A stretch of 64,000 bases of DNA from Nemertoderma westbladi. Taxonomy: Eukaryota; Animalia; Xenacoelomorpha. Shown here in pieces: positions 10,019 through 61,406 of this stretch. Each line of letters starts with the position of its first letter. Positions within the stretch are counted from its first letter, which is position 1. The notes under the pieces are model-generated. The model saw only the letters and a list, made by a program, of their open reading frames with translations, ran no database searches and had not been told where the DNA came from. The DNA lies in assembly GCA_032718475.1 (NCBI GenBank), contig JAUCBJ010000331.1, positions 2,157-66,156 on the forward strand, in the 5' to 3' direction. The translations under genes were made by a program, and so were the position numbers.

Positions 10019-10109
10019 CCACGTTATTCTTCCTAAAGATTTAGCTAAATTGGTTCCAAAATCACATTTAATGACAGAAACGGAATGGCGAAACATCGGT
10101 GTGCAACAG
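10019..10109 (+). CDS. CKS1: Cks1/suc1 coding exon 2
   Basis: Acceptor ttatttatttacag at 10018. Encodes (R)[30 protein letters not shown], with donor CAG|GTGAGT at 10110 (phase 0). Phase is compatible with exon 1. Confidence 0.97.
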
Positions 10110-41300: not shown

Positions 41301-41346
41301 TAACTGCTCTGGTCTGTAACTGCTTTGGTCTGTAACTGCTCTGGTC
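35338..41346. repeat. 16-bp satellite (gtctgtaactgctctg) x ~370 with variant units and duplicated blocks
   Basis: Directly visible. Confidence 0.97.
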
Positions 41347-41425
41347 GGGTGGTCCAAGCTGAGTACAATACCTACGAGGAACTGTTTTACGACATCGCGT
41401 ATCTAGCCATCGACGAGGCGTTACA

Positions 41426-43981
41426 ATGACAACAAATAACGTATCCGATACCGACGAGATGGATCACCACACAGACTCGGAAGCCGACGAGGTACCAAAC
41501 GTCAACAACATGACCCGTCGGTTAGGGGCTCTTAAAGGCGGAGTATCCCGAGCGTATCAACGGATGGAGAAACAACTCAAGGGAGTCAAAACCCCCCTCA
41601 ATGAGGTACAAACTCAGCTTCAAAGTATCCGAAATATCCTACAGCGGTACGAAAGAATGATACAGGCGTACCAAGAGCTCGTTCCCCCCACCGATCTGGA
41701 AAACTACCCCAAGTTGGAAGAACATGTTGTACATCTAGATGGGTTCCGCAAACAACACCGGAGGACCCTCAGCCTTGTGAGAGGCTATGAGGAACAGTAT
41801 TACAAGAGGGCTGAAAGAACAGACGCGGAATCAGTACGATCCTCGAGCATCAGGACAGCAGTACATCGAAAGAGAACGGGGTCCGTTAGAAATCAGCACT
41901 CCAGCGCTAGGAGCGAGATATCCGGCTCAGCGCGCAGTTCTCAAGGGGCGCCGCCACTCCGAGACCAACTGCGAGAACGGAAGGCATTAGCCCTCAAAGC
42001 TCGGATGGAAGATGAGTATATTCAACTGCAAGCCGAGCAAGATGTATTAGCCGCCGAAACACAAAAGCGAGAGGCCGAACAAGCGGCCGAACGGCAGGCC
42101 GAACAACGCGAACAGGAGGCCGAACAACATAGACGAGAGGCCGAACGGCAGGCCGAACAACGCAAACAGGAGGCCGAACAACATAGACGAGAGGCCGAAC
42201 GGCAGGCCGAACAACGCAAACAGGAGGCCGAACAACGCGGACGAGAGGCCGAACGAGAGATTGAACAACGTAAATGGGAAGCGGAAATGCGTAAACAACA
42301 CGCCGAGGCCCAAGCAATTCTCATCCACAAAAAGAATGCGGATATTGCAAAACTCGCAGAATACGAAGCCGCACTTATAGAACGAGATATTCAACTCTAC
42401 GAGGACTGGGAAAGGGATATAGATCAGGAATATGAACCAATTCCGGTACCGGAGTTAGAAAAGTCATTTACACCAACAGCGGCGAAACCTCCGAAACCCG
42501 AGATCCCGCCTACCAAACAGTCTACGCTATCGGCACAAGCCCTGGTGTTCCATCCCCCACCGGCTACGCTAAAGAATGAGGAACCTTATTTCCCATCCAA
42601 CACCACGACAGCGAGTGTACCCAAGTACGAGCCTGAAAAGGACTCGGAACGGGACGCCACTCCCCGATCGAACAACCCATTTACATCAACACCACAAACT
42701 CGTAGCCGCGTCATTATTAAAACTCCACCTATTATTGATCCATCAAGTATGGGAGTGAGTGCCAATAACTATAACCCTCCGAGTCACTCCAGTTCAGATG
42801 ACGTCAGCATCATCCGGGTGTTGGAGAACCGCCTTGCCATGCCTAAGATGGAGATTCGCACCTTCGAAGGAGATCCCGTCGATTACCTCAGATTCAAGAA
42901 ACGGTTCTTTGCGCAGATCGGATCAACGGACATAGCCGACGCACAGAAATTGGTATATTTATCACAATACCTGGGTGACAAACCACGCAGAATTATTGCA
43001 TGTTTTGAAGGAGGTTCTCATGAGGCATACTATGACGCATGGAAAACTCTGGATAAAAGATACGGAAATACCGGAACTATAATTAATAAAACTCTAGAGA
43101 GACTGATACAGGACGCGGGATCACTAGGGGAACCACAGAACATACAGGAATTCTCCGACTCTATGAAGGATGCCTACTATACTCTGAAACCCTTAAATAA
43201 GGAGGACCAGGTGAACAACATTCTAAACCTCCGACAGATCGCCAAGAAGTTCCCCGGATGGTTACAAAGTAAGTGGGCTTATAAATGTGTAGATCTCCGG
43301 CGCAGACATCCAGATCGAGATCCTAGCTTCCTTGAAATGTCGGCATTCCTAGACGATATCTCCGAAGCCATGAATGACTCAATGTTTTCAAAACAAAGTC
43401 TCGCAAAGTTGGACGGAATAGAGAGCAACTCCAGGAGTAAGATAACCCCTCCGAAACCGAGATTCCGCCCCCCACCGGTAAGTACGATGGCCATTACCAT
43501 GGCCGAGGATTCCGACGACGAAGACTACGAGGAACCGACATCCGCCGAGGAATGGGCATGTTATCTCGCGAATTGGGCACCCGAAAGGGAAGGCATCACA
43601 AATTCCCTGCTCTGTCTCTTCTGTGGGGAGAAACATAAAGTGGAATTCTGCAGAAAGTTTCAGTTCGCCGAACTCGTCCCACGCTTCGAGGCAATAATGA
43701 AACACCGAGGATGCTTCCGGTGTCTTGGAACAGGTCACTATGTTCGGGAGTGCGACCAAAGATCATGCTGTGCTGTCTGTAACGACCAACGCCATCACAC
43801 GCTCCTCCACATCCCCACGAACTTCGATTTTACTACCCTCCCCTTTCGGATCGAAGCCAGGCGAAGAGGAGAAACAAACCACATCTTCAAAGGAACCCGG
43901 ACAACCCAACGGAGAGAAACCAACCCGTTTAAAATCTCCACCGATACACCACAAGTAACCAATATTTCTGGCCACGATTAA
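41426..43981 (+). CDS. gag: BEL/Pao Gag (coiled-coil repeats, DUF1759-like core, three Cys/His knuckles)
   Basis: PKMEIRTFEGDPVDYLRFKKRF..KLVYLSQYL, then CLFCGEKHKVEFC, CFRCLGTGHYVREC and CAVCNDQRHHTLLH. Confidence 0.92.
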   Translation: MTTNNVSDTDEMDHHTDSEADEVPNVNNMTRRLGALKGGVSRAYQRMEKQLKGVKTPLNEVQTQLQSIRNILQRYERMIQAYQELVPPTDLENYPKLEEHVVHLDGFRKQHRRTLSLVRGYEEQYYKRAERTDAESVRSSSIRTAVHRKRTGSVRNQHSSARSEISGSARSSQGAPPLRDQLRERKALALKARMEDEYIQLQAEQDVLAAETQKREAEQAAERQAEQREQEAEQHRREAERQAEQRKQEAEQHRREAERQAEQRKQEAEQRGREAEREIEQRKWEAEMRKQHAEAQAILIHKKNADIAKLAEYEAALIERDIQLYEDWERDIDQEYEPIPVPELEKSFTPTAAKPPKPEIPPTKQSTLSAQALVFHPPPATLKNEEPYFPSNTTTASVPKYEPEKDSERDATPRSNNPFTSTPQTRSRVIIKTPPIIDPSSMGVSANNYNPPSHSSSDDVSIIRVLENRLAMPKMEIRTFEGDPVDYLRFKKRFFAQIGSTDIADAQKLVYLSQYLGDKPRRIIACFEGGSHEAYYDAWKTLDKRYGNTGTIINKTLERLIQDAGSLGEPQNIQEFSDSMKDAYYTLKPLNKEDQVNNILNLRQIAKKFPGWLQSKWAYKCVDLRRRHPDRDPSFLEMSAFLDDISEAMNDSMFSKQSLAKLDGIESNSRSKITPPKPRFRPPPVSTMAITMAEDSDDEDYEEPTSAEEWACYLANWAPEREGITNSLLCLFCGEKHKVEFCRKFQFAELVPRFEAIMKHRGCFRCLGTGHYVRECDQRSCCAVCNDQRHHTLLHIPTNFDFTTLPFRIEARRRGETNHIFKGTRTTQRRETNPFKISTDTPQVTNISGHD

Positions 43982-44000
43982 TCTTATAAATCGCCGCTAC

Positions 44001-47000
44001 ATGGTTTTCGCAAAGGTAATCCCAGTAAGGATCCAAGGAGTCGGCAAATCTTTGACGACACTCGTGTTCCTCGATAACGGGTCTGACGGAACCATCATCG
44101 ACCGGGATTTCCTCGAGCAACTCGGCCTAGAATATGAACCTTGTAAACGGCCCATACAAACCATCACCGATAACAGAGAAGTAGAGTCCGGGGAGGTACA
44201 ACTCCAGATGGAAGGAGTGATGAAGGGCTACGAAACGGCTAAGTTAACCATCAAGAACGCCTTGTTACACACAGACCTCCGGGTGCGGTTCCGACAATCA
44301 GCCGAGTATGCCCCCCTCATACAATTGGACCGAGACGATGTAGACCTGAGGTGTCCGCAGTTGGACGTGAACCGTATCACCCTACTGATCGGACTTGATA
44401 TACTGGAACTACACATCCCCACCGGAGATATCGCTCGATCTATAAACCAGGATGATGGATTTTATGCTGAACGAACAATAATGGGATGGACACTCTGCGG
44501 CATTAAGGAGGAAACTACGGACACCTATACCTACCTTCCTAAATGTCAGATTAAAGAGAATGTAACCTCTGTGGGTTATTGCTCAGCTTCGGATCTCGAC
44601 GAGGATTTGTTTCTGGAAACCGAGAAAACCCAACGAGAGATGACGAAATATTTTAATTTGGAGACCCAGGAGTTCGCGGAAAAGGACGAAAACCCATCCG
44701 AAGAGGACCAATATTGTATGGACGTTCTCGACCAGGCCACGTTTAAAGACGGACATTGGTGTTCACCTATGTTATGGAAGGATCCAAACAAACCAATGGC
44801 AAACAACGCCAGCATGGCACTTAGGCGACTTAAAGGGATTCTACGCCGGCTGACTGACCAACCCGAGATAAAGGAGAAATATAATACCGTAATCCAAGGA
44901 TATCTCGATGATGGATTAGCAGAAATGGTACCACGGAATGAACTGCAAGGTGGTGAAAGAACATATTATCTCCCAACCCACTATGTAGTAGAAGCCCGCA
45001 AAGGTGGGAAAATCCGAGTGGTAAATGATGCTGCCGCTATGTACCAGGGCGAATCCCTAAACAGTCAGCTTTACACGGGACCCAACATATATAGTACACT
45101 CATCGGCGTATTGATCAGGTTCAGGGAAAACCGGGTAGCATTCACCTGTGACATCAAGGCCATGTTTCATCAAGTTCGTACGTTACCAAGAGACTCGGAC
45201 TGTCTACGTATCCTATGGACGGATAAAACGCTTACTCAACAGGAGATTAGCCAACTCACGATCAAGGACGTAGACGTAATGCGTATGGTCGTCAGGATCT
45301 TCGGCGCTAAGGACTCGCCGGTAGCATGCAGTAACATGCTAAAGAGGACAGCAACTATGTGCGAAAACGAGTTCCCTCCAACCGTCATAGAAACCATTCA
45401 ACGATGCTTCTATGTGGACGACGGATGCGCTGGCGCGGATAATGTGGATGAGGCATATCGGCTAGCAATGGGGATGGTAGAATGTCTGAAGAAAGGAGGG
45501 TTTCCGCTCGTGAAGTTCAGATCCCACGACAAAACACTTATGGAAAAGTTTCCAGAGGACATCCGGCTGGAAAATAACAAAATGTATTCGGAGGATGTGG
45601 AACATCGTGTACTTGGGATTGAATGGGACATAGAATCAGACGAATTCATCTTCAAATATAAACCCCTACCCAAGCCTATGACAAAAAGGGGATGTTTGTC
45701 GATAAAAAGCGCCATCTTCGACCCACTAAATTTCATATCTCCAGTAACCTTGGCCGGAATGAACCTGATTAAGGAAATGTGGATAGAAGGACTGGGATGG
45801 GACGAAGAGCTCCCCCCATACCTCAGCGTCAAATGGAGAAAATGGACGGAGCAGCTCGAACACCTACACCTTATGCGGATACCTAGACCGTTCTTCCTCG
45901 ATAAATTGCCCACCGATATCTTCCAGCTCCACACCTTTTCGGATGCTTCGAATACCGGAATCGGCGTAGTCACCTTCCTACGGAGACTAAGTAACGATGG
46001 AAACGGCGATACAAGCTTCTTATTCTCCAAAGCAAAGACAGTATCCGGGGAATTCGTAGCAACGATCCCGAGACTCGAGCTACAAGCTGCAGTTTGGGCA
46101 GTAAGACAGAATCGCATGGTCATGCGGAATCTACGGATCCCCATAGAATCTCAACACTTCTGGGTAGATTCGAGTATAGTTCTCTATTATCTCCACTCTC
46201 CATCACGGCGTCACACCACATTTGTTGCAAACCGAGCCACGGAGATTAAACAGTGTACCGGCCGAGAACAGTGGCATCACGTGAATGGGAAGGAAAACCC
46301 AGCGGACTTATCAAGCCGAGGCGCCACCCCAAAACAACTCGGTAAAAGTAAACTCTGGCTTACAGGCCCGGAATTCCTACGGCAGCCACAATTAACATGG
46401 AGTACCCGATTCGACCCCGAGCTCGATAGCGGAAAATACTCCGAGGACGATAAAGAGATCCGTAAAATCCATCGAAGCAACGCGGTGGAAATTTATAGTT
46501 GTCTGACTGAGCCTGCAAAGGACTCGGGCAGGCACTATAACGTCGCGACGATCACTCAACTAGCGGCGTCTTTACATCGGTTGATCGAGCGAACTTCATC
46601 CATGAGACGGCTCGTCCACTACGTTATAACCCTTCGCAACTTCCTACGGTGGAAAAACAACAAACCGATAGTTCAACGGAATATACAAGAACTTATTATC
46701 GCGGAGAAGTGTATTGTTAGATATGTCCAGAAAGAAAGTTTCCCCGATGAATGGGAACAACTTAGTGCGGGCAAAACGTTGAAACCGGACAGCCCAGTCT
46801 ACCAACTGAGACCAATGATGGGAGAGGACGGACTGATCCGACTGAATACCCGGATGGCAAACGCCCCGGTCGAATATGAGGTTAAATACCCGGCGCTTCT
46901 GCCCGGAACGTCGACACTAGCTAAGCTATTAATTCTACAATGTCACGAGGACAACCACCACGCAGGACAGAATTGGATTATAGCTAATATAAGACAAAGA

Positions 47001-48116
47001 TATTGGATCACCCACATCCAGCCACTGATCCGGAAAGTGTTGAAACGTTGCTTCACCTGCAGACGTTACCTAGCGCCACCAATCACCCAAAAGATGGCCG
47101 ACTTACCAGCCACCCGTCTACAAGCGGATTCCCCACCATTCTACGTCACCGGAGTGGACTGTTTCGGACCGTTCACGGTTATTGAACGACGATCCAACAT
47201 CAAATGCTGGGGAGCCATCTTCACCTGCCTAAGGTCTAGGGCAATTTACCTAGATATCGTGGTAAATCTGACACAACACGCATTCATCAACGCTCTGCGT
47301 CGATTCGTGGCGAACAACGGGACATGCCGCCACATGTATTCCGATAACGGTACAAACTTTGTGGGAGGAGAAAGAGAACTTAGAGAGGCGATCGAGGGAT
47401 GGTTTACCGATAACACCGCATCCCAAGTCTGGAAGGAACACCAGATACAGTGGCACTTCCAGACCCCCTTAGCACCCCATACGAGCGGGGTATGGGAGAA
47501 ACTGATCGACCTAGTGAAACGATCCATGCGCGTCGCTCTAGGCGATACCCGGGTAACCCATGACACCCTCCGCACAACATTCTGCGAGATCACGGCTACC
47601 CTGAACAACCGACCCATTGTTCCTATCCGCGACGACCCCACAGACCTGGAGCCCCTCACTCCTAACCACTTACTGGGGAGACCCAAAACCCACGTCCTCC
47701 CGGAAACCATGTTCCCGGATCCCAACGAGATCGCGAAACATACAAACTGGAAAAAGGCCCAAGCGTTGGCAGCGCATTGGTGGAGAATTTGGGCCCAGGA
47801 GTATCTCATAACCCTCCGGACCAGGAGGAAATGGAACAACACCTACAGGAACGTCGCAGTTGGCGACATGGTACTAGTTAGAGAAGATCTCAAAGACCGC
47901 GTTCACTGGCCTGTGGCGCGGGTCGTGACCATACACCCAAGCAAAGACGGACTTGCGAGGACTGTGACGATACGAACGAAATCGGGCCACTACCAACGCC
48001 CCATCCAAAAGCTGTGCCTTCTTGAAGGCAATGATAGCGGTGACTCTACGAGAGGTGATAAGTTCCCTACTCAAGATCCTGCTGCAGACATCGGTGACAA
48101 TTATAAATGCGTTTGA
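44001..48116 (+). CDS. pol: BEL/Pao Pol (aspartic protease, RT, RNase H, integrase)
   Basis: FLDNGSD; DIKAMFHQV..FYVDD; FSDAS..TIPRLELQAA..FWVDS..NPAD; H..H/C..C; GVDCFGP, SDNGTNF, GVWE; WPVARV..RPIQKLCLL. The frame is open from 43959. Confidence 0.96.
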   Translation: MVFAKVIPVRIQGVGKSLTTLVFLDNGSDGTIIDRDFLEQLGLEYEPCKRPIQTITDNREVESGEVQLQMEGVMKGYETAKLTIKNALLHTDLRVRFRQSAEYAPLIQLDRDDVDLRCPQLDVNRITLLIGLDILELHIPTGDIARSINQDDGFYAERTIMGWTLCGIKEETTDTYTYLPKCQIKENVTSVGYCSASDLDEDLFLETEKTQREMTKYFNLETQEFAEKDENPSEEDQYCMDVLDQATFKDGHWCSPMLWKDPNKPMANNASMALRRLKGILRRLTDQPEIKEKYNTVIQGYLDDGLAEMVPRNELQGGERTYYLPTHYVVEARKGGKIRVVNDAAAMYQGESLNSQLYTGPNIYSTLIGVLIRFRENRVAFTCDIKAMFHQVRTLPRDSDCLRILWTDKTLTQQEISQLTIKDVDVMRMVVRIFGAKDSPVACSNMLKRTATMCENEFPPTVIETIQRCFYVDDGCAGADNVDEAYRLAMGMVECLKKGGFPLVKFRSHDKTLMEKFPEDIRLENNKMYSEDVEHRVLGIEWDIESDEFIFKYKPLPKPMTKRGCLSIKSAIFDPLNFISPVTLAGMNLIKEMWIEGLGWDEELPPYLSVKWRKWTEQLEHLHLMRIPRPFFLDKLPTDIFQLHTFSDASNTGIGVVTFLRRLSNDGNGDTSFLFSKAKTVSGEFVATIPRLELQAAVWAVRQNRMVMRNLRIPIESQHFWVDSSIVLYYLHSPSRRHTTFVANRATEIKQCTGREQWHHVNGKENPADLSSRGATPKQLGKSKLWLTGPEFLRQPQLTWSTRFDPELDSGKYSEDDKEIRKIHRSNAVEIYSCLTEPAKDSGRHYNVATITQLAASLHRLIERTSSMRRLVHYVITLRNFLRWKNNKPIVQRNIQELIIAEKCIVRYVQKESFPDEWEQLSAGKTLKPDSPVYQLRPMMGEDGLIRLNTRMANAPVEYEVKYPALLPGTSTLAKLLILQCHEDNHHAGQNWIIANIRQRYWITHIQPLIRKVLKRCFTCRRYLAPPITQKMADLPATRLQADSPPFYVTGVDCFGPFTVIERRSNIKCWGAIFTCLRSRAIYLDIVVNLTQHAFINALRRFVANNGTCRHMYSDNGTNFVGGERELREAIEGWFTDNTASQVWKEHQIQWHFQTPLAPHTSGVWEKLIDLVKRSMRVALGDTRVTHDTLRTTFCEITATLNNRPIVPIRDDPTDLEPLTPNHLLGRPKTHVLPETMFPDPNEIAKHTNWKKAQALAAHWWRIWAQEYLITLRTRRKWNNTYRNVAVGDMVLVREDLKDRVHWPVARVVTIHPSKDGLARTVTIRTKSGHYQRPIQKLCLLEGNDSGDSTRGDKFPTQDPAADIGDNYKCV

Positions 48117-48389
48117 ACCCTTCTCATCATGTTGACAAACTCTTTTTAACTGTGATTTACTGACAATGAGTTATGGACCCCCCTTAAACCAACTGTAACC
48201 ACGCAATGGTATTTGTGTTTCCTCGTGTGTTATGTGGAGTCCAGCATCACCCTGCAGATGTTTCGACTGACGCAGGGTCGTTTATGTTTTGTTTACCCTG
48301 ATTTTGGTCATCAGGACCTACGATATTGGATTATTGGAGATGGAAAAGATTTGAAGTGGAATTCATTGTATTCATCGCAGTATGTTATG

Positions 48390-48812
48390 TTGTCCGTTGC
48401 GTGTGCAGTTCGGGGCGTAGGCGGTGTAACGAGTCCAGCTGTAGATCCCGGATTGCCGCGCAACACCCCCTCTATCCCGTTATTCTGGTGGGTCCATGGT
48501 GCATCCACATGACTTCGACGATAGAGGGTTTTATGTTTCTCAGTCGCGTTATTCTGGTGGGACCGTTGCGTGGATTTTGGGGCGTAGGCGGTGTAACGAG
48601 TCCAGCTGTAGATCCCAGAATGTTGCGTAACCCCATCCCACATGACTTCGTCGACTGAGCTTTATGTTGTTGGGAGTGTTATTCTGGTGGGTCCATGGTG
48701 CATCCACGTGACTTCACTCCCAGTGTCGTCATTGTCCGTTACGTGCGCAGTTTGGGGCGTAGGCGGTGTAACGAGTCCAGCTGTAGATCCCGGATTGCCG
48801 CGTAACACCCCT
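48390..48812 (+). repeat. Three ~170-bp spaced direct repeats between pol and ORF3
   Basis: ggggcgtaggcggtgtaacgagtccagctgtagatccc occurs at ~48412, ~48579 and ~48754, with ttattctggtggg also present three times. Confidence 0.85.
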
Positions 48813-49341
48813 TCCACGACAAAGATTAACCAAAGAAAATGATTGAATATAGTTGGAAACGATGAAAAGGATCAGACAACTCTACTATAAACCTGAATGA
48901 TGATGCGTATGCTGATGAAAATGAAATGATGCGCACCCTGGTGCTGCGCTTATAACAATGATGATAGCCGGGGGGCTATAAACCCAATGATGATGTGGAA
49001 ATAAATAAATGTGAAATAAATGGTGGAAATAAATATGTTGAAATATGTGGAAATAAATGAAATGAGATGAAATAATAATGAAATGAAAAAAGACAAAAAA
49101 AAGGTATAAAAAGGTCTAAGAAAAGAATTGGAAAAAAGAAAGGACAAAAAAGTCATAAAAAACTGGTTGGATATTAATGTATAGTTATAGTAACTGTAAA
49201 TGCTGAATGTATTAGCAATAAGATGATAGATGCCTATATAGCAATGTTATTAATAAACTGAATTAAATAAAAAACTGAATCATTCTGCTATCGCTATAGT
49301 TTCAGACTTTCTGGACTTATAATTAACTGATCTAATTTGTA

Positions 49342-51960
49342 ATGGATATAATCGTAAATATGGACCCAAATCGCCAAATTATCGGCGAATTACGTAACAC
49401 GGTAGATCTACTGGAATATTCGCAACCCGGATCCCCTGACTTTGATACAAATTGGAGCACCCTTCTAAATGAGAACGTGCGAGTCATTAAATTCACCGGG
49501 CGAGAGGGACCGGATTCTAAGAATCTACGAGCCCTCCGGTTAGCCGATGCTAGTACGAGACTGAAAAGAACTCGGAACGCAAAGGCAACCGGAGGGGACG
49601 ATCCGTCGTTTTGGGAAACGTTCCGGCAGAGCGTCTACAGATCCCGATGTTTGATCTACGACAACGAGGGAAACGCGACGCCCACCTCGAAAGCGATTAC
49701 GTTGGCGAGATGTCAAAGTTTCGTCGACGACAAGAGTACGTACCTCGCCCACTGGGGAAACCTTTCGGAGTGTACGGCGACGCTTCGAGAGGAACGCATA
49801 TCGATTATCCAAAACCGAGACGACTACCAGGAAAAGTACGGGGCGAAAGAATACGGTCGATCCTTAGTCGTCGTCCTCGGAACCCTGGACGGTTTGGTAC
49901 TGGTGTGCCGATTATTCCCGACACCCAGACAGGAAGTGCAGGCAGCCGGAGCGATCTGGTTGCTGCCTCCGGAAATCCAAAAGATCCTCTTCGACTTCGA
50001 CGTCATTAAAATCGGGTCGGATATCAAGGCAGACGTCCGGAACGACTACGCGAACGCTCCTGCAGGAAGAAACCGACGAGACGACCTCAACGCCCTTAGC
50101 CATTGCATCGACACTCAAACGCTACTAGCCTGGTTACGATTCGCCGAGTTCATGCGAGGATTCCAAGAGGTGAGACCGACGAAATCCGGGATCGGCTACC
50201 TCGCTGTGCTAAACGGCGGCATCGACTTCAAACCCCAGAAATTCCGGGACTATAATAAAATATACGGTGGATACCCGGGATTGGAAATAAAGAGCGAGCG
50301 AGAGGGTCGATGGAAGGACGTTGATCGGAAGTGGACGATACACCAAAGATGGGAGAATCCCGATCGACGGAACTACGTTTACGTCATTATGGAATGCTAC
50401 ACCGTCGCTAAGTTTATCTGTAAAACTCTCGATAATCTTATTACGGCGGTCCCCCTTTCCTTCGTCGACTACGACTGGAACGAGGTTATAAACCACGCGT
50501 TTAAAGCGGTCGAGAACATTACACCGGGAGAATCGAAAACGCCCGCCGTTATCGATTCCTGGGACGAGAGCGGACCTTACGACATCCCTACGATTACCGA
50601 ACTTCTCGGTGCGGAGGAGCCTCTGATCTCCTCGGAAGGGGAAGAGATATGGCTAAACGAGGGTGTTCTACTCTCCACCCCGAAGCGACAACTCGAGCCG
50701 GAGGCCGCGTATGGACCGGCCGCCAAACGGGTTGCCTCGGCCGAACCGATGAAGAGAGCAGGCGTTTACACCCCACGCGGCTCCGGTAGCCCCGCGAGGG
50801 AGGTAGCCACTACAGCTGCATTGAGCGACTTCGGCGACATATGCCAACGGTTATCCCCGTATCCTTTCCCGGGTGGCGAAGATTGGTCGTCGGAGATTCC
50901 GAGTACCAGCCACCAACGGACCCGCTCAGCGATACTGGTCGAGGAGGGCCCCAGCGATGCGCCGACCCCCGACGATCTCCTCGGTATCCCTCCGTCTAAA
51001 ACCCCGGCACCTCTTCGCCTACCAGCGGTGCCTACTACACCCGCCGTTCCTCAGGACCCTATGCGACTAACCCGTTGGTACGCCGAGCAAACTGAATGGA
51101 TCCACCGCCAGAAACGGTCATCCGAGTTAAGACCAGCGGGACACAAAGAAGGTTATCGGAGCGAGAACCTACTACGCAAAAGCCTAGCATTCCGCGGGCT
51201 ACCGACCACCGAGAATATTCCGAAGAGCGACCGACGACTCGAATACTACGTCGGCGTCCCGATTCCGATATTTCCTGGTCGAGAGATGCAGTTGGAGGTA
51301 TGCGGCGACTGTGGTTCGGAGCAGTGCCCACGCGGCAGAAGGAATCGGGTTACCGATTCATGCCTCCAGCTCCTCGGGATACTCTATTGCCCTTACTGCG
51401 CGACATCGGGCCACGACGTTTCCGTCTGCCCGATCCTTTATAACCTCTGCACCACGTGCGGTTTCCGTGGACATTCCTCTAGCCCCCGCTGCTATATCAA
51501 ATGTCCAACCAAAGACGTTACCGCTATGGGAAATATGGTCATGTTTGAAACGTACGCAAACAGCCACTTAAAGACCAAGGTTCGGAGAAACGCTCGGAAT
51601 ATCGCGCAGGAGATGGCGTGCGGATATTTCTCCTTCCCGGAACGCCTCCACACGTCGGCCACGCTACCCTTCCATTACGTGGATCTGCTACTGAGCGCCG
51701 GATTATTCGGTCCATTCGAAGTCATTAGACGATTATATTCGTATAAAGAGGAGTTCGGTGACGGAGAGTGGTTCCTAGAGGCACGCAAATCTGAGTTGGA
51801 AAGACGAACCGACATGATCCCTATGCCATCGAAAGGAAGAGCCGCCAGGAGACAAGCCGAAGCGTTACTCACGATGGATGTGGACGCTCCCCTACCAGCC
51901 ATAGCGATCGATGAGAGTCGACGGGCGAAGAGACAAAAGGCGTATCAGAGAAAGAAATAG
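49342..51960 (+). CDS. Retrotransposon ORF3: DEDDy-like 3'-5' exonuclease (WRN/Mut-7/EXD-like) with C-terminal zinc knuckles
   Basis: Intact 872 aa. ExoI IYDNEG, ExoII LPPEIQKILFDFDVIKIGSDIKAD, then CIDTQ and ExoIII-like YVIME. C-terminus has CGDC, CPYCATSGHDVSVC and CTTCGFRGH..C. Confidence 0.72.
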   Translation: MDIIVNMDPNRQIIGELRNTVDLLEYSQPGSPDFDTNWSTLLNENVRVIKFTGREGPDSKNLRALRLADASTRLKRTRNAKATGGDDPSFWETFRQSVYRSRCLIYDNEGNATPTSKAITLARCQSFVDDKSTYLAHWGNLSECTATLREERISIIQNRDDYQEKYGAKEYGRSLVVVLGTLDGLVLVCRLFPTPRQEVQAAGAIWLLPPEIQKILFDFDVIKIGSDIKADVRNDYANAPAGRNRRDDLNALSHCIDTQTLLAWLRFAEFMRGFQEVRPTKSGIGYLAVLNGGIDFKPQKFRDYNKIYGGYPGLEIKSEREGRWKDVDRKWTIHQRWENPDRRNYVYVIMECYTVAKFICKTLDNLITAVPLSFVDYDWNEVINHAFKAVENITPGESKTPAVIDSWDESGPYDIPTITELLGAEEPLISSEGEEIWLNEGVLLSTPKRQLEPEAAYGPAAKRVASAEPMKRAGVYTPRGSGSPAREVATTAALSDFGDICQRLSPYPFPGGEDWSSEIPSTSHQRTRSAILVEEGPSDAPTPDDLLGIPPSKTPAPLRLPAVPTTPAVPQDPMRLTRWYAEQTEWIHRQKRSSELRPAGHKEGYRSENLLRKSLAFRGLPTTENIPKSDRRLEYYVGVPIPIFPGREMQLEVCGDCGSEQCPRGRRNRVTDSCLQLLGILYCPYCATSGHDVSVCPILYNLCTTCGFRGHSSSPRCYIKCPTKDVTAMGNMVMFETYANSHLKTKVRRNARNIAQEMACGYFSFPERLHTSATLPFHYVDLLLSAGLFGPFEVIRRLYSYKEEFGDGEWFLEARKSELERRTDMIPMPSKGRAARRQAEALLTMDVDAPLPAIAIDESRRAKRQKAYQRKK

Positions 51961-52125
51961 TGGATCGGGATATTCCAGGAACATTTATCGAACATTTATT
52001 TTTATACAAACTCTAGGCCAAATTAATTAAAAACTATGCAATATTAAATTTGGGTTTTTTATATTGGGAATGACCTACGCAAACTCAATCGACCGACAGA
52101 CTTCACGAAGGTCATTGGGGGGGAC

Positions 52126-53645
52126 TGTTCGCGGTATTTCAACTTTCCATAACGCGAGTTGAATATTTTTGTATTTATTTAAAATTGATTATTCTGATAT
52201 TACTACTGGGTGCGGGACCATGGGTTTTGGGCACATTTAATAAACTGGGGGCGATTTATGGGCGAACTTTGGGGCAACTTACAGGGTACGGGAATAATTT
52301 CATAGTTATAAGGGCCAGGGGGGGATGGAAAATGCAAGCAGTATTCAGGTTAGCCTGAGTACTATTAGGCCCTGGCCAACTTCCTGCTGCCTGTAGGGGT
52401 GGATTTGGTAATGCGCCAGGCCTAAAGGACAAGGACTGCCCTTAGCGGTCCCTGGCCAACAGCAGCCATTACGAGCCTGAAAAGAACTCGGACCGCTGAC
52501 TGCTTGTGTCAGGGATTTGCGACGGGAAACGACGGCCCCTTAGTAGCCAAGCCGTTCTGGTTCTCGATGATCGAACCCTTCGGGGTTCGTGAGGGGTGGA
52601 GCGGACACGCGAACAGGTGGCCAACTAACGACTGCCCCCTGAGCTAAGCCGTACTGGTTCTCGATGACCGATCCCTTCGGGGTTCGCGAGGGGTGGGACA
52701 GACATGCGAAAGGGCTGGCCACAGGACGGGTTTGACGAGAACTGCCCTTAGCGGTCTCTGGTCAACGGCAGCTACTACGAGACTGAAAAGAACTCGGAAC
52801 GCTGACTGCTTGTACTGGGATTTGCGACGGGAACCGACGACAGACCCCTTAGCCAAGCCGTACTGGTTCTCGATGATCGTTCCCTTCGGGGTTCGTGAGG
52901 GGTGGAACGGACACGCGATGGGGTCGAAACCCACAGTGCGGGAAAGACAAGCTGGCTACCATTGAAATGAATAGGGGAAGGATAATATGGTGTGTTCGTG
53001 TTCCCATCCTAATAATGTCTGTCGTCTTGGCTCAGCTAAGCTTAAACAGAGCCACAGCCTACAATAGAGCTTTACCTAAATACACTTCCAGTGAGCCAAG
53101 CAGTAGTGGCGGCGGGTTAGCTCCAAAATGCCCATGTAGGATTTCTTCGAAAAAGGACCAATTGGTTGAGTTACGAGTTACAGTGAAAAAGTATTCATGA
53201 TTAGATTTTGCTTTGAACAGGAGAAACAGATGGAATATATATAGGTCATCTAATTATTTGTTTAAAGATTAGCAAACAATACAGTGTAATTGAATTGATG
53301 AAATCCATAAATAAAACTTGGATACAAAATCTAAAATCGGGATGAAAAATATAAATTTCTGAGCTAAGAAAGGGAAATTGGATACTGTTGGAGAGGGAAT
53401 GTGAGAATTGGATACTGTGGGGGTTGGGGAGGGAATGTCCGGAAATCGAAGCCTTTTTCTATCTGCCAACATCCTGGGCTTTACTTACACTCAGCCTCCA
53501 TTCACTGGCTGTGATTGACAAGCTAACGTGCCTCAGAAGTTCCTTTCATGAATGCCGCAATTTATATTTGGCCATTTTGGTCGTTTTGGCCGCCAAAATG
53601 ACCAAATTAATGTTTATTGGGATTGGGACTGTATGGGCCCTAACA
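52126..53645 (+). mobile_element. Probable LTR region between the two BEL elements (3' boundary uncertain), with ~306-bp internal direct repeats
   Basis: Begins TGTT after a purine tract. Repeats start at 52435 and 52741. A possible end is AACA|TGGT at 53645. There is no second LTR copy in the window to confirm the boundaries. Confidence 0.45.
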
Positions 53646-53742
53646 TGGTAACATCAACCCCAATACCAAATAGGGTGACATTCCCCCATTACAATATCAG
53701 CAATATACCCAACCAAGACCAAGAACAAAAACCCCAAACCCC

Positions 53743-56700
53743 TTGGACCAAAATAAATCGTGTGATACCGAGATATGGAGGGGACTGTTACCCCCAATGA
53801 TATATCCAACGCAGAAGAGGTTGACAGGCCCGACGGGCGAACCACACCCAGCAGCAGGGGAATCTGGACAGCACCCATCGAGCCCACTAGAAGTACAGGC
53901 AATGGGAATGGCAACACTCATCGATGCGCTTAAGACCAGGATCGAGCTGCCACCAGTGGAACCGTTCAAATTCGATGGAAGCAGACCGGAAGAATACCTG
54001 CAATTCCAACGCATGTACAGTAATGAAATATTAACAAAGAACTTGACACAGGCAGAGTGCCTAAAATATTTACAAGTTTACACAGGGGGCCCAGCATACG
54101 ACATCGTAAGGCAGTATCAAGGTATCGAAGGTGGATTCACAACTGCATGGCGGTCCCTAGACAGGGAATACGGGCATCCTGCTAAGATCATCCGACAAAC
54201 CTTAACGGGAATTACATCAGGCGGACTACAGGACAACTCTGTCAGCATTAAGACTTTCGCGAATAAAGTCGAAAAGGCGCTGATTGTGCTGAAGACCTTA
54301 GATGCGCCTTACGAACTCAATGCATCGAACAACATCACCACAATAGCGCAGGCACTGCTGATCTGGCTAAGAAACAAGTGGAGGAAGATTGCCTTCTCCA
54401 CCCGGGAGAAGAAAGGTGCGGAACCAGGCCTAGAGGAAATGTCGAACTTCCTCAATTACGAGGCGGAATTGATAACGGACCCAGTCTACAGCGAGGATAG
54501 TCTGGGGAGGGCGCCGAGGACCGAATACAACAGGCCAAAACCAGAACATAGTGCGGCAAATGCGTTACCAAAGTTAAGACAATCGCTACCATACGCGGCG
54601 ATGCAGGGGACTGCTAGTCCACAGATAGCCGGGGGTAGGGCCACACTGTGGCATGAACAGGGACAAAATAATAACACAAAAAAATACAACCCCAACATGC
54701 CCAGTAGGCCAAACCCAAATAATAAGAACGCTAGACAGCTAAGCATGAATATACGTGCAATACGCAATGCACTGTATAGAGAAGGCTATAATCCGAGAAA
54801 CAAATGCCAATTACACTCGAACGCACTCCATCAGACTATGAAATGCAAGTATTTACAGGCGTTTCCCAAACAAGATCAGGTAGAATACGCGAACAGAAGT
54901 GGAATCTGTCATCGATGTGTGGTAGGCGGACACAAGGTTGAACAGTGTAAGGAGACGCCAATAAAATTCGGTCAAGGCAAAGGCCAAACAATGGCGACAA
55001 GCACCATAGGAGCGAAGAAAAGGGGAACGGAACTACTTGGGGTGGTACCGGTGAGGGTGATGGGAGAAAGCAGTCGATCAGTCACGACATTGATGCTTGT
55101 CGACAGCGGAGCAGCCTTCACGCTGGTGGAGAATTAGGTGGCCGAGGAGATGAGGTTACAGACCAGGCCGAGTAGGATGGCGGTAACTACTATCTCGAGC
55201 AAGGATGAGGTCCTGGAGATGAGAACGGGACGGTGCGAGATATCAGCAATAGCACCAGGATGTGATTATGGGGTGACCATCGACCCCATTCAGATAATAG
55301 AATCGATTAATATAAACGCCAAGCGACCCACAAGGATCGAGGTCGAGCAATATCGGGTCCTGGACGATATCGATTTCTCAATACCGGAAGTGGACGTTTC
55401 GGAGGTATCCATTATAGTCGGAATGGATTGTCCGACAGCCCACGAGAGGATATGGACCATATTCGGAGAGAATAAGCAGCACGATCCGATGGTGATTCTC
55501 ACGCCATTCGGATGGACGCTTAGCGGCCCAATTGAGACCAAGATTCCATTCAGGGTGTCGGAGACATCAGGGTGCATGTTCGCAGGTACAATGAGGGAGA
55601 TGGAGGACGAAGGAGCAGAAGAGCAACTTAAGAGGCTGCTGCGGCAGGACTTCGAAGGATTAAAGGAGGCCGGGGTCGGAACCTCGGTAGAAGATAAACA
55701 AGCGATAGAGAGCGTAAAGGAGTCGATGAAGTGCAAAGGGGGACGGTACACCATAGGGATGGTGTGGAGACAACCAAAGCTGCCGTTGCCAGATAACAAA
55801 GGGATGGTACTCACGAGGCTTCGCAAACTGAAGGAGACACTCAGACGGAGCCCCGAGAAGGACGAGTACATCCACAGGACAATCAAGAAATACGTTGAGA
55901 AGGGATGGGCCATGGAGTTACCGGTCGACGAGCCAAACACGGACAGGACCTACTATCTGCCACTGCACATGGCTTTAGATCCAAAGAAGGGTAAACTGCG
56001 GATGGTGGTCGACGCGTCAGCCAAAATGAATGGCAAGAGCCTAAACGACTATCTGCTGGAGGGCCCCAATATCTATAACTCCGGGATAGAGGTCTTGTTG
56101 AGATTCAGAACTGGGAGGCACGCCTTCACGTGCGACATTGAAGGCATGTTCAACCAAGTCCATGTGACGGAAGAAGACAGCGATAGTCAGCGCTTCTTAT
56201 GGTATAACGGCGACGAAATGTTGGTGCAAAACATGGGGGCCAAGTCGTCCTCATTTACAACGACTACGGCTGTGAGAGATACGGTAGAGGGTAAGGAAGG
56301 AGAGCATAGTACGAAGGTGATCGATATGATTCCACACGATTTCTATGTAGACGATGGGATGGGATCTGGAAACATGGTTGAAGAAATACTGGAGATAGGG
56401 CGCGAGGTTTGAGACATCCTAAAAGGATCCTTGTTCAACCTCACTAAGTTCCAGTCCAGCTCCGAGGAATTCATGAAAGCCATAGAAGACAAGCAACCAG
56501 AGTCGACCATGGACAACCCCACAACAGCAAAGGGACAGGATCTGGCGAACAAGAGAGTTGAGTCTCAGCAAAAGGCACTAGGGATCGTGTGGTCCCGGGA
56601 AATGGACGAGTTGGAGTATCAACTGAGCCAAGAGGGTGCAGAGATCCACACTAAGCGGGGCTATGTATCGTACATAGCAAGGATATATGATCCCCTAGGC

Positions 56701-58499
56701 CTAGCATCCCCACTGTTAGTCACGGGGAAGCAACTATTAAAGAAAGTATACAAGTTAAAGGATGAATGGGATACAGAAGTCCCGGAAGAAATAAGTAGAC
56801 AGTGGAGCAAGTGGACGTGGAGTCTAGAGGAGATGGGGACGTACAGCATGCCACGCGTGTATTTCCCGGACGGAGACATGACGGACCTGGATCTACACAT
56901 GTTTTCCGATGCATCTTTGGAAGCATATGGAGCGGCACTTTATTTGGTACAGCGAAAGGGGGCTCATAAGCCCAGACTTGCATTTAGTAAAGCAAAGTTG
57001 ACGCCACCAGATTCAGCATCAGTGCCGAAACTCGAGCTGACAGCTGCGAGGTTAGGAGCAAGGGCCACAGCTTACTTGAGGGACACTATACCTAACATAG
57101 TGGAGACACACTACTGGACGGACTCCATGGTTGTGTTAGGGTGGCTACATAACGAGAAGACGAGATACCCTATATTCGTCGCGAATAGGATAAACGAGAT
57201 AAGGGCGACGACTGACCTAGAAAGGTGGCATTATTGCCCTACCGACGAGATTCCAGCAGATCTGTTATCGAGGCGCGTTGCACGCTGCACCTTTTCGAAG
57301 AAGGAAGAGTTGTGGCAACACGGGCCACACTTCCTTAATGATAGATCAGCATGGCCACCAATGAGGAAGGTGGACCCTGGCTCAGAGGAAGTAGTAGCAG
57401 AAGAGGAGGGGAAAGATCCAGAAGGGGAAGAGATATATAGCCAGTTGGAGAGGGAGATCAAGGAAGTGCCACCGAGATCAGAAGATCCATGTGATAATCC
57501 AACAGATAGGTTTCTCAGTTACAGCTCCAGCTGGTAGCATATTGGAGGGCCTACGGGGATTTCCTTAGGGGAGTTGGCAAGGATGCCAAAAGGAAACCAA
57601 CCATCGATCTGGAAGGAGCGGCTATAGCCATAATGCGATACGAGCAAAGAAAGGAGTACGCTGACGAAGTGGACAGAGTTAGCAAGCAACAACACCTTCG
57701 TCGAGACAGCGAACTCAAAACGCTGTCCCCGCAGTTGAACGAGGACGGGATTCTGGTGATGAATTCCAGAGTGGTGAACAATAACAGCTTAGTTATCCCA
57801 CCAAAACCCATAATAATCCCCAATAAATCACCAATAGTCCACCAGATCATATGGGACTCGCATAAATCGATACTACACGGAGGCACGAATCAGATACGAA
57901 GATACGAAGGACCTTCTGGATCACCCAACTTAGGAAGAAGGTGAAGGCGGTAGTGGGGCAGTGCCAGACCTGCCGACGGACGAGAAAGGAGAGGGCCGTA
58001 CAGGAGATGGCGCCATTACCGGCCAACAGAGTGAGACAACACGACCCGCCATTCACGCACTGCGGCGTGGACATGTTCGTGCCGATTAAGATAAAGGTGA
58101 TGCGGCATACGGAGAAACGCTACGGCATTATCTTTGTCTGCAACAACACAAGAGCGGTGGGAATAGAACTTGCGCAGGGCTACGGCATCGGCATTTATTA
58201 ATGCCTTAGAAAGATTTGTAAGCCACAAAGGGGGAACACTCAAGGTGATATATTCAGATAATGGGACCAACTTCGTGTGAGCGGAGAATGAGTTGAAGAA
58301 GGGTGACTTGGTAATCGTCACTGACGACACAATTTTCAATAACCAATGGAGACTAGCGAGAGTGGTAGATACTTACCCCGACGAGGGCGGAAGAGTCCGG
58401 TTGTTGGAAGTGAGGATAGGAGGCAAGATAGGGGCCAAAGATAGGAAGACATACAGGAGGGCTGTGGGAAAGTGCTGCCTATTGGAAGGGGCACCTTAG
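53743..58499 (+). pseudogene. BEL/Pao element 2, decayed gag-pol
   Basis: Motifs LPPVEPFKFDG, LVDSGA, FYVDD, FSDAS..PKLEL..YWTDS, GVDMF and SDNGTNF. In-frame stops at 55135, 56410 and 57535, several frameshifts, and a deletion in integrase near 58292. Confidence 0.93.
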
Positions 58500-58656
58500 A
58501 GTTTAGATGTCCAATATGTTGGACTGAGGGGGGTGGAATGAGGGCAAGACGCCCTTCCCACACACCAAAAAACACAAAAAAATAATAAAATAAGAAGTGA
58601 GATAGTAGAAAGTTAGAAAGTAATAGTAGTAGATAATAAGATAGTAAGTAGCACTA

Positions 58657-59220
58657 GTTAGAAGTTAGGGAGTGTGGTATATAGACATACCACGAGAGTA
58701 GTAGCAGGGTACATAGTACCGGAGTAGTAGGGTACATAGTACCGTAAGAAGCTAGAAGTTAAAAGTTAGGGAGTGTGGTATATTATTGACATACCACGAG
58801 AGTAGTAGCGGGGTACATAGTACCGGAGTAGTAGGGTACATAGTACCATTAGTAGTAGTTAGAAGTTAGGGAGTGTGGTATATGGACATACCACGAGAGT
58901 AGTAGCAGGGTACATAGTACCGGAGTAGCAGGGTACATAGTACCGTTAGTAGTAGTTAGAAGTTAGAGAGTGTGGTATATAGACATACCACGAGAGTAGT
59001 AACAGGGTACATAGTACCGGGGTAGCAGGGTACATAGTACCGTAAGAGGCAGAGGTTAGAAGTTAGGGAGTGTGGTATATAGACATACCACGAGAGTAAT
59101 AGTAGGGTACATAGTACCGTAAGAGTTAGAAATTAGAGTTAGTAGAAGTTAGTAGTAAGAGAGTAGAGAGTATGGTATATAGGTATACCATAAGATTAGT
59201 AGTAGGGTACATAGTACCGT
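58657..59220 (+). repeat. ~95-120-bp tandem repeats with internal hairpins downstream of element 2 pol
   Basis: agaagttagggagtgtggtatatagacataccacgagagtagtagcagggtacatagtaccg is repeated about 5 times. Confidence 0.85.
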
Positions 59221-59756
59221 AGAGGCTGTGGGCATTGAGAGCGCCCTGAAAGGGAGAGGGGGGCATATGGGTACAGCAGGATAGACCGTGTAGGCCGCAC
59301 GAGACAGACTACTGTACTGCACAGCCCATAGTGTAAGTCTAGGATGTTTGTTACAGTGCCAGGAAGTTGCCTGGTATGAAACTAGCACAGTAGAGAATAG
59401 CTAGTTTTCCCTGTATACAAACTACAGGGGTTATCTAGGTAGAAATAACCCACCATAACCAATAATAGCACACTAAGAGAGAATAAAATAGTATTAGGAG
59501 CAAAATTTAATAAATTACGGCAACAGTAGGCAAAGGATTCTAGAATCATAATTAAAGTAACGGACAGATTTGTAAAATTTAGGAAAATTGGCACTTTGGG
59601 GGACGTATAGGTATACTTAAAATTATACCACAAAATTAGGGTTTTTAGGAGGTAGGCCATTACTGAACAAATACACACCATCTTATTAAACGTCACTCAT
59701 CTAATTGAGCCTTGGTAAGGCACCACCAATAAGGTGAGCGCGCAAGAAAGTTCGTA

Positions 59757-60747
59757 ATGGTGGAGAGACTAGTTAAGAAGAGAAAGATGGAGAGGAGTGG
59801 AAAGGAGATACTAGTGGACTTCACGCAAAGGCATCCGGAGGAAAGGACGAGGGAATACTACAAGCCGCTACTGAAGGGTCACAAAGTGCGAGCGCTGCAG
59901 GACCACTTTAGGGAGATGCACTAGAGAGGACTGGTCGGGACCTACAGGATGCCGTCGTTGGACAACGCGATCCTCGAGGATTTTCGCTACATAGTGAAGG
60001 GAGACGAAGTGAAGTTCGGGATACCGAAGTATCCGGGGGAACCACCGAGAAATGAATGGAGGAGGTTTGTAGAGTCTGTGAGTAGGGGTGGATATGGATA
60101 CATGGTCCTAGACGACGAAGGGACTGTGGAGGATGACGAGGGCTCAAGAAGAGGGTCGGTGGGATCAGCTAGAACCCTACTACTGCATTTGGCCTCGCCA
60201 AATGGAGACATCTTTCTATTCGATCTGGGAACCTATGGGAAGAAGAGCGGGCCGAAGTTAAACCGGTTGCCAAGGGCGGAGCAGGACCTAGTGAGGGAGA
60301 AGACTACAGTGAAGGTGGGATCGGCGATCCGCGACGACGCGGAGAGGATCGTTGGACCGGAAACTCCCAACCTCCTGGACATGCAAGCGGTCTATATGGC
60401 CATGATGGGGCCAGACGGGTTGGGATTGGTAGAGAACACAGTACATTGCGGAGCAGTGGCGATAGGTCAGCTCATGGGGCTCGTCTGCCACAAGCCGATG
60501 GACTGGGGTAAGTTCCGGGAGGAGTACGGAGCGGAACTGGTGAACTCGCTGAAATGGGGAGTGAGGCCAGGGAAACAGGAGGTGTACCAGTTCCGAAGGG
60601 GAGCGATAAAGATATATCAGAAGAGATATATCCTACAGGAGGATTGGATAATGATAGGTTTACTAAACCTATTCATGGCCGTGGTTATCGGAGGAGAGCC
60701 AACAGCGTTTCTGCTATCAGGAGCACCTCTAAACTACAGAAGAGCCT
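59757..60747 (+). pseudogene. Element 2 ORF3 homolog: DEDDy-like exonuclease, premature stop and 3' truncation
   Basis: ATG at 59757 is in frame with 59949, with a TAG at 59922. Motifs WRRFVESVSR..VLDDEG, LLHLAS..IFLFDL, LP..DLVREKTTVKVGSAIRDD, LLDMQ and YILQE. Composition changes abruptly at ttaaccct (~60748). Confidence 0.72.
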
Positions 60748-61406
60748 TTAACCCTGTAAAAGCTTCTGTGGGATATAACTGGCCCCTTTTGCTTCGCAAT
60801 CCAGTTTCCCCCCAGGCGCTGGAATACTCTAAAAAGGTTCTCTAACTGTATATATATTCCCCTCGCCCGCAAGGTACCGTTACAGGTGTTTTAACGGACA
60901 TAAAAGTCATTCTGCTATATACGTGTTTTAGCGGACATGGTAAGGCAAAAAACCTGCAATGCACCAAATACCTTTCACAGCTTAGCCGTGATGATTCATA
61001 TTACGACATCTAACAGCTGGTTGCTGACATGGAAACAGCCATTGGATGCATGGTTCTTTGTTTGGCTTGAGCCAATCAGAGCGTTTTTTCCTGTCGACGT
61101 GTAGCTTTTCGGCCGATCATAAGGAGAGTGTTCAGTCTTACTGTTTTTACTTGATACTTTGTTGTTATTGCTGTCTAAGCTAGAAACACCGGCTCTAAGA
61201 ACTCTAGTAAAACTGCTTAGATTATAGAAAGTATAACTGTTACCGGCGGTGTTACCTCACTTAATTTAACTGCACTAATCATATTGTTTGTACTGCTATT
61301 TACCGTCAGTTATTAATTGTATCTATTTGTTGATGGAAATATTGCTCTTTGGAGAATACGGATAAATCACCCAAAATTCCCAATTTTCTTGATACACTAC
61401 AGGTTA

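Follow-up and report, generated by a model that had tools for sequence, protein, structure and literature searches.

What is the open reading frame (ORF) that begins at 59757, behind a decayed pol gene, in a stretch of DNA from the animal Nemertoderma westbladi, and does it belong to the retrotransposon that precedes it? The stretch that we analyzed, hereafter the window, comprises 64,000 nucleotides (nt) of contig JAUCBJ010000331.1 (positions 2,157-66,156, + strand; assembly GCA_032718475.1). The right third of the window contains the bodies of two BEL/Pao long terminal repeat (LTR) retrotransposons, both on the + strand and located behind three large satellites. We refer to the left and right bodies as element 1 and element 2, respectively, and to the extra ORF that follows pol in each of them as ORF3. 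The explanation that we favor, and that we hold with about even confidence, is that this ORF, which spans 59757-60715, represents a decayed copy of a BEL/Pao third gene that has lost its 3' end. Moreover, both extra genes are likely related to each other and likely derived from a 3'-5' exonuclease. The features of element 2 and of its right flank are as follows.

53674-58499, + strand: decayed BEL/Pao gag-pol of element 2, with the pol stop codon at 58497-58499.
58644-59222, + strand: tandem repeats of element 2 behind pol, with a period of 97-100 nt in ~5-6 copies.
59400-59700, + strand: AT-rich spacer of element 2, with a GC content of ~0.33, just upstream of the start of ORF3.
59757-60715, + strand: ORF3 of element 2, with its ATG at 59757 and an in-frame TAG at 59922-59924, cut at ~60716.
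60716 to at least 61300, strand not assigned: unrelated, very abundant repeat, recognized by a jump in depth and by loose contig ends.

The gag-pol of element 2 matches the Pfam families DUF1759 (expect value, E, of 5.7e-11), Peptidase_A17 (E 2.1e-42), Integrase_H2C2 (E 1.4e-6), and DUF5641 (E 3e-10). It is interrupted by in-frame stop codons at 55135 (TAG), 56410 (TGA), and 57535 (TAG), undergoes frame changes in its integrase part, and is without the integrase stretch that corresponds to residues ~1153-1302 of the element 1 pol; this gag-pol is dead. An earlier reading made from the sequence alone (hereafter the sequence-only reading) had placed the ORF behind it at 59757..60747. The ATG at 59757 is indeed in frame, but the TAG at 59922 interrupts the ORF and position 60747 is not an end, the surrounding stop-to-stop frame extending from 59925 to 60845 and closing with a TAA at 60843-60845.

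Other copies were surveyed in the contigs of three DNA-type runs (X1, X2, and X3, under one organism label) at 85% likeness. (Note that these runs contain about one third of the sampled window words, and that, by the account of the tool itself, depth is measured unreliably in runs of contigs.) At position 59922, the contigs that differ from the letter in the window number 35, 48, and 38 in X1-X3, respectively, and make up nearly the whole depth; thus the TAG is private to the window copy, and the ORF of the family is open at this point. At the other end of the ORF, depth rises from 8,298-11,836 in the bin 60672-60725 to 141,954-165,476 in the bin 60726-60779 (X1-X3), and from bin 60726 on it amounts to 142-972 thousand, roughly 15-80 times that of the part of ORF3 just upstream. 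Loose ends are located at 60715, 60755, and 60801, and contigs of the abundant repeat carry other DNA before 60715. It follows that the ORF in the window owes its final ~43 codons and its TAA to the unrelated repeat. This copy of ORF3 is therefore both dead and truncated at its 3' end at ~60716. (The abundant repeat also occurs, with 95-100% likeness, in a run that bears another organism label, and its stretch from 60716 to 61300 has no tRNA or Rfam match.)

Whether the truncated ORF lies inside element 2 is best judged next to element 1, whose features are as follows.

41363-43981, + strand: BEL/Pao gag of element 1, open, with DUF1759 and a zinc knuckle.
43959-48116, + strand: BEL/Pao pol of element 1, open, with Peptidase_A17, Integrase_H2C2, and DUF5641.
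48390-48817, + strand: repeats of element 1 behind pol (48390-48472 is 94% identical to 48732-48814, and 48394-48641 is 68% identical to 48563-48817, by self-blastn).
48900-49300, + strand: AT-rich spacer of element 1, with a GC content of 0.22-0.33.
49342-51960, + strand: ORF3 of element 1, 872 codons, intact, with its TAG at 51958-51960.
52113-52935, + strand: putative polypurine tract (PPT) and 3' LTR of element 1, a G-run (52113-52121) followed by TGT...ACA, with tandem repeats at 52428-52918.

Both elements are BEL/Pao elements that are clearly related yet very divergent. Element 1 matches DUF1759 (E 8.7e-15), Peptidase_A17 (E 4.9e-38), DUF5641 (E 1.6e-28), and Integrase_H2C2 (E 1.7e-8), and the two elements are 31% identical in pol over 817 amino acids (aa; E 2e-100) and 29% identical in gag (E 2e-22; tblastn), which bears out the description of element 2 in the sequence-only reading as a very divergent BEL element. 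The layout that had been proposed for both elements, namely pol, structured repeats, an AT-rich spacer, and then an ORF, likewise holds by repeat coordinates and GC content, with the ORF on the same strand as pol. The ATG of the ORF is located 1225 nt behind the pol stop in element 1 (49342) and 1257 nt behind it in element 2 (59757), and the first block common to the two ORFs begins at aa 91 and aa 101, respectively.

In element 1 the right border can be approached through other copies. The region up to ~52935 has a contig depth 2-4 times that of the interior, and loose ends accumulate at 52918-52929. Each of the three DNA runs also has contigs (3, 2, and 2) in which 42651 is followed directly by 52464, the 9.8 kb between them being absent; this joint probably marks a derivative of element 1 that lost its interior but retained the beginning of gag and the LTR-like end. 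We infer that the sequence from 52113 onward consists of the PPT and the 3' LTR (~52125-52935) of element 1, a 5' LTR copy being absent from the window. Because the PPT-like G-run and the TGT are located behind ORF3, and because the 42651-52464 joint ties this region to the element, ORF3 of element 1 would be internal. The 5' end of element 1 is cut by the satellite with a 16-bp (base pair) unit, which ends at 41346; loose ends occur at 41341, and other copies diverge upstream. (The 16-bp array extends right up to the gag of element 1, in place of the 5' end of the element. A 32-nt stretch within its ORF3, at 49549-49580 and coding for ...STRLKRTRNA..., recurs at 97% within the repeats of the inferred 3' LTR, at 52771-52802, and may be a trace of recombination within element 1.)

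For element 2 the sequence-only reading had itself cautioned that a PPT-like tract at ~58528 might place the ORF inside or beyond an LTR. Stated in full, the alternative is that the purine tract at ~58526-58552 is the PPT of element 2, that the repeats at 58644-59222 are its LTR, and that the ORF at 59757-60715 is a separate repeat unit or part of another element. The purine run is located directly behind the pol stop of element 2, and the inferred LTR of element 1 contains tandem repeats too. Depth drops to 170-466 in the bin 59700-59753 and climbs again from 59754 on. Furthermore, self-blastn of the window detected LTR pairs in neither element, so that the borders are not settled by this route, a point against placing the ORF within element 2; what both elements do have is the set of Pao gag and pol domains. 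Set against this, element 1 has the same order of parts at nearly equal distances, and its PPT-like tract and high-depth LTR-like stretch are located behind ORF3, not in front of it; this speaks for an internal ORF3 in element 1, and the caution stands for element 2 as a minor rival. Moreover, a divergent contig in X3 (36 other letters and 6 gaps over 326 nt) spans 59538-59863 and thereby bridges the spacer and the start of the ORF, and depth is a poor guide in contig runs. We regard a position outside element 2 as very unlikely, and we treat the ORF in what follows as the third gene of element 2.

Are the two ORF3s related to each other? The strings that the sequence-only reading had matched are present in both ORFs as written, in all six blocks. 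Counted from the ATG at 59757, those of element 2 are WRRFVESVSR (aa 101-110), LDDEG (118-122), LLLHLAS (141-147), KVGSAIRDD (186-194), LDMQ (207-210), HKPMDWGKFR (245-254), and YILQE (291-295); counted from the ATG at 49342, those of element 1 are WETFRQSVYR (91-100), YDNEG (106-110), LVVVLGT (175-181), KIGSDIKAD (223-231), IDTQ (256-259), FKPQKFR (296-302), and YVIME (347-351). MAFFT and Smith-Waterman alignments pair the first five blocks unaided, and the D-x-E-G, K[IV]GS.I[KR].D, and [IL]D[TM]Q blocks are paired by MAFFT, Smith-Waterman, and semi-global alignments alike. By contrast, the last of the proposed pairings, that of YVIME with YILQE, is produced by neither MAFFT nor Smith-Waterman, nor by any other aligner used. 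At the DNA level self-blastn found no similarity between the two ORFs, just as had been stated.

The pairwise similarity exceeds chance only marginally. BLASTP gave a best E of 0.65 between the two ORFs, and on a different local alignment from that of the listed blocks, and tblastn between them gave nothing with E<1. In Smith-Waterman tests with three scoring schemes, 29, 25, and 17 of 500 shuffles scored at least as high as the real pair. In semi-global alignments, 132 and 107 of 2000 shuffles did so with the untrimmed proteins, and 7 and 3 of 2000 with trimmed domains, the trimming having been done after the alignment had been seen. Six control pieces of pol gave z values of -1.56 to 2.37 in the trimmed semi-global test. 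A significant pairwise alignment, on which the sequence-only reading had staked the relationship, was thus not clearly obtained, given a BLASTP E of 0.65 and shuffle p values of ~0.002-0.07 depending on trimming. One could argue, then, that the two ORFs are unrelated and that their common blocks are chance resemblances picked by eye among many possible pairings; the BLASTP, Smith-Waterman, and untrimmed semi-global results would all fit such an account, as would the fact that one of the six control pieces reached a z of 2.37. It would leave to coincidence, however, that the ORFs agree in position, in strand, and in distance behind pol within two elements of clearly homologous gag and pol, that their nearest clusters in the ESM Atlas are identical, and that only 3-7 of 2000 shuffles reach the score of the trimmed domains. 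(In the ESM Atlas both ORFs return the same clusters in the same order, namely three Basidiomycota clusters of 213-214 aa followed by a plant cluster labeled '3'-5' exonuclease domain'.) We consider it highly probable that the two ORF3s are homologous, the stronger grounds being their position behind pol in homologous elements and their common ESM Atlas clusters, and we put the chance account at the low end of the alternatives, about level with a position outside element 2.

If the ORF3s are homologous, what are they? With the element 2 ORF as ESM Atlas query P0002, the first scores were 0.96, 0.95, and 0.95, a PF01612 '3'-5' exonuclease' cluster scored 0.94 (184 of 256 features), 25 of the 30 nearest clusters were in the PF01612 set, and the recognition value was 2643. 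With ORF3 of element 1 as query P0005 the corresponding scores were 0.93, 0.92, and 0.92, with 0.91 for the PF01612 cluster (157 features) and 24 of 30 nearest clusters in the PF01612 set. In addition, the D-x-E, K[IV]GS.I[KR].D, [IL]D[TM]Q, and W..(R)P strings occur in the order typical of PF01612 and at roughly its spacing. Alignment of element 2 by hhalign against 30 bacterial RNase D domains sets its blocks, together with WGVRP, on the DTE, K..HA...D.E, DTQ, and W..RP columns of the family, with an E of 0.26 that is not significant.

Against this identification stands a long series of results. The recognition value of 1974 and the 157-167 features obtained with P0005 are below the tool's own marks, and hhalign places element 1 out of register (E 0.48). 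Neither ORF3 has a family match in Pfam with E up to 10 or in NCBIfam; PHROGs gave only matches with E of 0.36-0.9, to families of unknown function, and no relevant sequence match was found in the PDB with either protein alone or with a two-row profile of the two. Profiles of PF01612 were built from bacterial members (30 of RNase D type, 21 small exonucleases, and the 51 combined) and searched with the hmmsearch filters off. The RNase D profile (30 loci) gave -2.4 bits for element 2, a value reached by 226 of 1000 shuffles, and no match for element 1; the small-exonuclease profile (21 loci) matched neither ORF3; the combined profile (51) gave element 2 a score reached by 150 of 1000 shuffles and again no match for element 1; and with a glocal profile the scores were reached by 319 of 500 shuffles for element 2 and by 37 of 500 for element 1. 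The only stretch of element 2 that hmmsearch aligned was KVGSAIRDD, on the K..HA...D.E columns, at -4.7 bits. Finally, AlphaFold2 returned a mean pLDDT (predicted local distance difference test) of 32.7 from the single sequence and of 33.6 from the two-row alignment, and thus no usable model.

Relatives were not found elsewhere either. The homologous-protein search returned none for P0002 and P0005 (233-744 aa range) or for query P0001 (480-1530 aa range), and two metagenome-contig scans and one viral-contig scan contained no relative. A phmmer search over 1.84 billion representative proteins likewise found none beyond a single match (E 3.1e-4) to a protein of 1546 aa, which we rejected as spurious since it is made of repeated units of the GPDHPDTL type.

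The exonuclease named in the sequence-only reading is therefore confirmed by no profile, solved-structure sequence, or fold, and the identification draws on the ESM Atlas look-alikes and on the register of the motifs. These same data invite another account, in which the ORF3s are homologous accessory genes but not derived from an exonuclease, their product being an orphan that binds nucleic acids and has a different fold, and the motif strings being a coincidence. Such an account would be in keeping with the blank outcome of every profile, solved-structure, and fold test, with the lack of a relative among the 1.84 billion representatives, and with the knuckles of element 1 (described below), which suggest nucleic-acid binding without catalysis. 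What speaks against it is that for both ORFs, which have no detectable mutual BLAST similarity, the PF01612 set accounts for 24-25 of the 30 closest ESM clusters, and that the motifs come in the order of the family and close to its spacing, with four of them set in register by hhalign. On balance we consider an orphan binding protein unlikely, if less so than either of the alternatives weighed above, and we lean towards a DnaQ-like fold derived from an exonuclease for both ORF3s.

Whether such a domain would act as an enzyme is a separate matter. In the nucleotide sequence of element 2 the relevant strings are located at 60111-60119 (D119-x-E121), 60312-60338 (KVGSAIRDD), 60375-60386 (LDMQ), 60555-60569 (WGVRP), and 60627-60641 (YILQE). 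The candidate acids of element 1 are D107-x-E109 (ExoI-like), D231 (ExoII-like), and the glutamate of Y347-x3-E351 (ExoIII-like). All aligners pair D107-x-E109 with D119-x-E121, in alignments that are not significant, and the pair of element 2 falls on the DTE column of RNase D. The ExoII-like aspartates are D231, in the KIGSDIKAD of element 1, and D194, in the KVGSAIRDD of element 2. The canonical ExoIII motif of DEDDy enzymes is Y-x3-D. Neither ORF3 has it: element 1 has Y347-x3-E351, and element 2 has either Y291-x3-E295 or, in the RNase D register, Y277-x3-R281. The statement that both ORFs have YxxxE thus holds for element 1, but for element 2 it is only one of two readings; moreover, no aligner reproduces the ExoIII pairing between the two ORF3s, a point against the favored explanation. 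Because the third motif is altered (YxxxE in element 1, and YxxxE or YxxxR in element 2), the domain may be an RNA- or DNA-binding derivative, as PMC5408684 says of Maelstrom and EXD1. Catalytic activity of any kind appears doubtful, and an inactive binding module would be as likely as an active enzyme.

ORF3 of element 1 extends well beyond this domain. Its exonuclease-like part occupies ~49612-50394 and is followed by a Pro-rich linker and then by two C-x2-C-x4-H-x4/5-C knuckles, at aa 683-696 (51388-51429) and aa 703-717 (51448-51492). These CCHC knuckles suggest a role in nucleic-acid binding. It is this ORF3, an intact homologue, that is worth study, as opposed to the dead and truncated copy in element 2.

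The numbers of contigs in X1-X3 on the 19.9 kb that cover both elements (15,024, 29,765, and 19,402, respectively) and on 59700-61300 (2,162, 5,254, and 2,663) indicate that both element families are high-copy. Among the contigs that cover ORF3 of element 2, indels with a share of at least 15% are limited to a deletion of 6 nt at 60090 and a single compensated -1/+1 pair, which speaks mildly for a frame preserved during the spread of the element 2 family. Among 40 of the 163 variant rows, mostly private changes of the window copy, 35 are located in ORF3 of element 2. These 35 are distributed 10/13/12 over the three codon positions, 11 are synonymous and 24 are not (23-34% synonymous being expected at random), and 15 are of the CpG-decay type. 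The window copy has thus drifted neutrally since its insertion, which says nothing about the active lineage. A fourth run, X4, guessed to be RNA and bearing another organism label, contains element 1 contigs at 95-99%, including one at 49203-49852 that extends over the spacer and the start of ORF3. (X4 also carries contigs of the abundant repeat but none over 59700-60754; the run could represent RNA, DNA carry-over, or a related species, and was not used as evidence of expression.)

We propose, as a possibility, that the ORF3 product would bind the nucleic acids of the element and, as these are replicated, would either trim their 3' ends or keep hold of them. The transcript for ORF3 would be subgenomic or spliced, with its start in the AT-rich spacer. 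A wider and more tentative proposal, to which we give well under even weight, is that a BEL/Pao lineage has kept ORF3 across pol genes that are only 31% identical. Its ORF3 would combine a diverged DnaQ-like domain, altered in the third motif and without detectable public relative, with CCHC knuckles; it would act on small RNAs or 3' ends of the element or of the host, as a replication helper or as a counter-silencing factor, and would be without precedent in BEL/Pao.

The surroundings of the two elements include further features. At 43969, where the frame changes between gag and pol of element 1, all aligned contigs (2, 5, and 5 in X1-X3) have a one-base indel relative to the window, and gag and pol of this family may be in one frame in other copies; a single gag-pol frame is usual for BEL/Pao. 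Within the gag of element 1, upstream of DUF1759, a 54/108-nt tandem repeat (42085-42306) encodes a reiterated stretch rich in Glu, Gln, Arg, and Ala, with units such as REAERQAEQRKQEAEQ. The three satellites to the left of element 1 are as follows.

10079-17573: satellite with a 38-bp unit in 197 copies.
17576-32704: satellite with a 20-bp unit in 758 copies.
35341-41346: satellite with a 16-bp unit in 371 copies.

All three show strong strand skew. A GC-richer island with an ORF of 173 aa (24387-24908) breaks up the 20-bp array near 24-25 kb. Rfam (at gathering thresholds) and ARAGORN gave no match anywhere in the window.

How do these ORF3s compare with known genes? The cellular DEDDy exonucleases of PF01612 include RNase D, the WRN exonuclease, Mut-7, Rrp6, and the proofreading domain of Pol I. 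The two ORF3s resemble them in the order of D-x-E, K.G....D, D-T/M-Q, W..(R)P, and Y-x3-acid and in their nearest ESM clusters. They differ in that no profile match is significant, in that the ExoIII aspartate is not conserved, in that the genes are borne by transposons, and, in the case of element 1, in a 46-residue insertion after ExoI. Within BEL/Pao, the elements roo, Tas, and Cer7 carry an env-like third ORF. As in those elements, the third ORF here would be located between pol and the 3' LTR; unlike theirs, it appears from reading its sequence to be enzymatic or nucleic-acid-binding and not envelope-like.

The closest published parallel comes from bdelloid rotifers. According to Rodriguez, Kenefick, and Arkhipova (2017; PMC5408684), DEDDy ORF3s are carried by the bdelloid LTR elements Juno and Vesta and by the Athena/Terminon Penelope-like elements; they have strong DEDDy exonuclease homology by profile searches, a catalytic set changed from DEDD to DEED, Cys/His motifs in some members, and no coiled-coil or transmembrane domains, and their proposed role is 3'-end processing or RNA binding like that of Maelstrom/EXD1. 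The idea that an LTR element can capture a DEDDy ORF3 is thus already published there. The elements in the window resemble Juno and Vesta in having an extra ORF behind pol of an LTR element, an altered catalytic set, and Cys/His motifs alongside. They differ in being BEL/Pao, where Juno and Vesta belong to gypsy-like clades, in that no profile detects the exonuclease domain, in that the altered position is the ExoIII acid and not the third residue, and in that CCHC knuckles come after the domain of element 1 within a single long ORF. The Dada DNA transposons (Kojima and Jurka 2013; PMC3706591) have a DEDDy domain within their transposase. As in the proposed reading of ORF3, a mobile element has a DnaQ-like exonuclease domain, thought to process 3' ends, but in Dada, a DNA transposon, the domain belongs to the transposase itself and none of the four catalytic residues has been lost. 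No exonuclease ORF in BEL/Pao is described in the papers that our literature searches returned, part of which were covered by title and opening lines of the abstract.

If the exonuclease derivation should not be confirmed, an orphan ORF3 common to two BEL/Pao families would remain, a finding of modest importance. If it is true, another superfamily of retroelements has an exonuclease-type ORF3, one that is far more diverged and is fused to zinc knuckles, and the language-model features indicate a family that profile methods miss. Exonuclease-type accessory genes would then not be confined to the gypsy-like and Penelope-like elements of bdelloids but would occur as well in high-copy BEL/Pao elements of another animal, and ORF3 of element 1, with its 872 aa, would offer an intact and testable protein. 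Such a distribution would suggest that retroelements have repeatedly turned to a DnaQ-like module for 3'-end processing or RNA binding.

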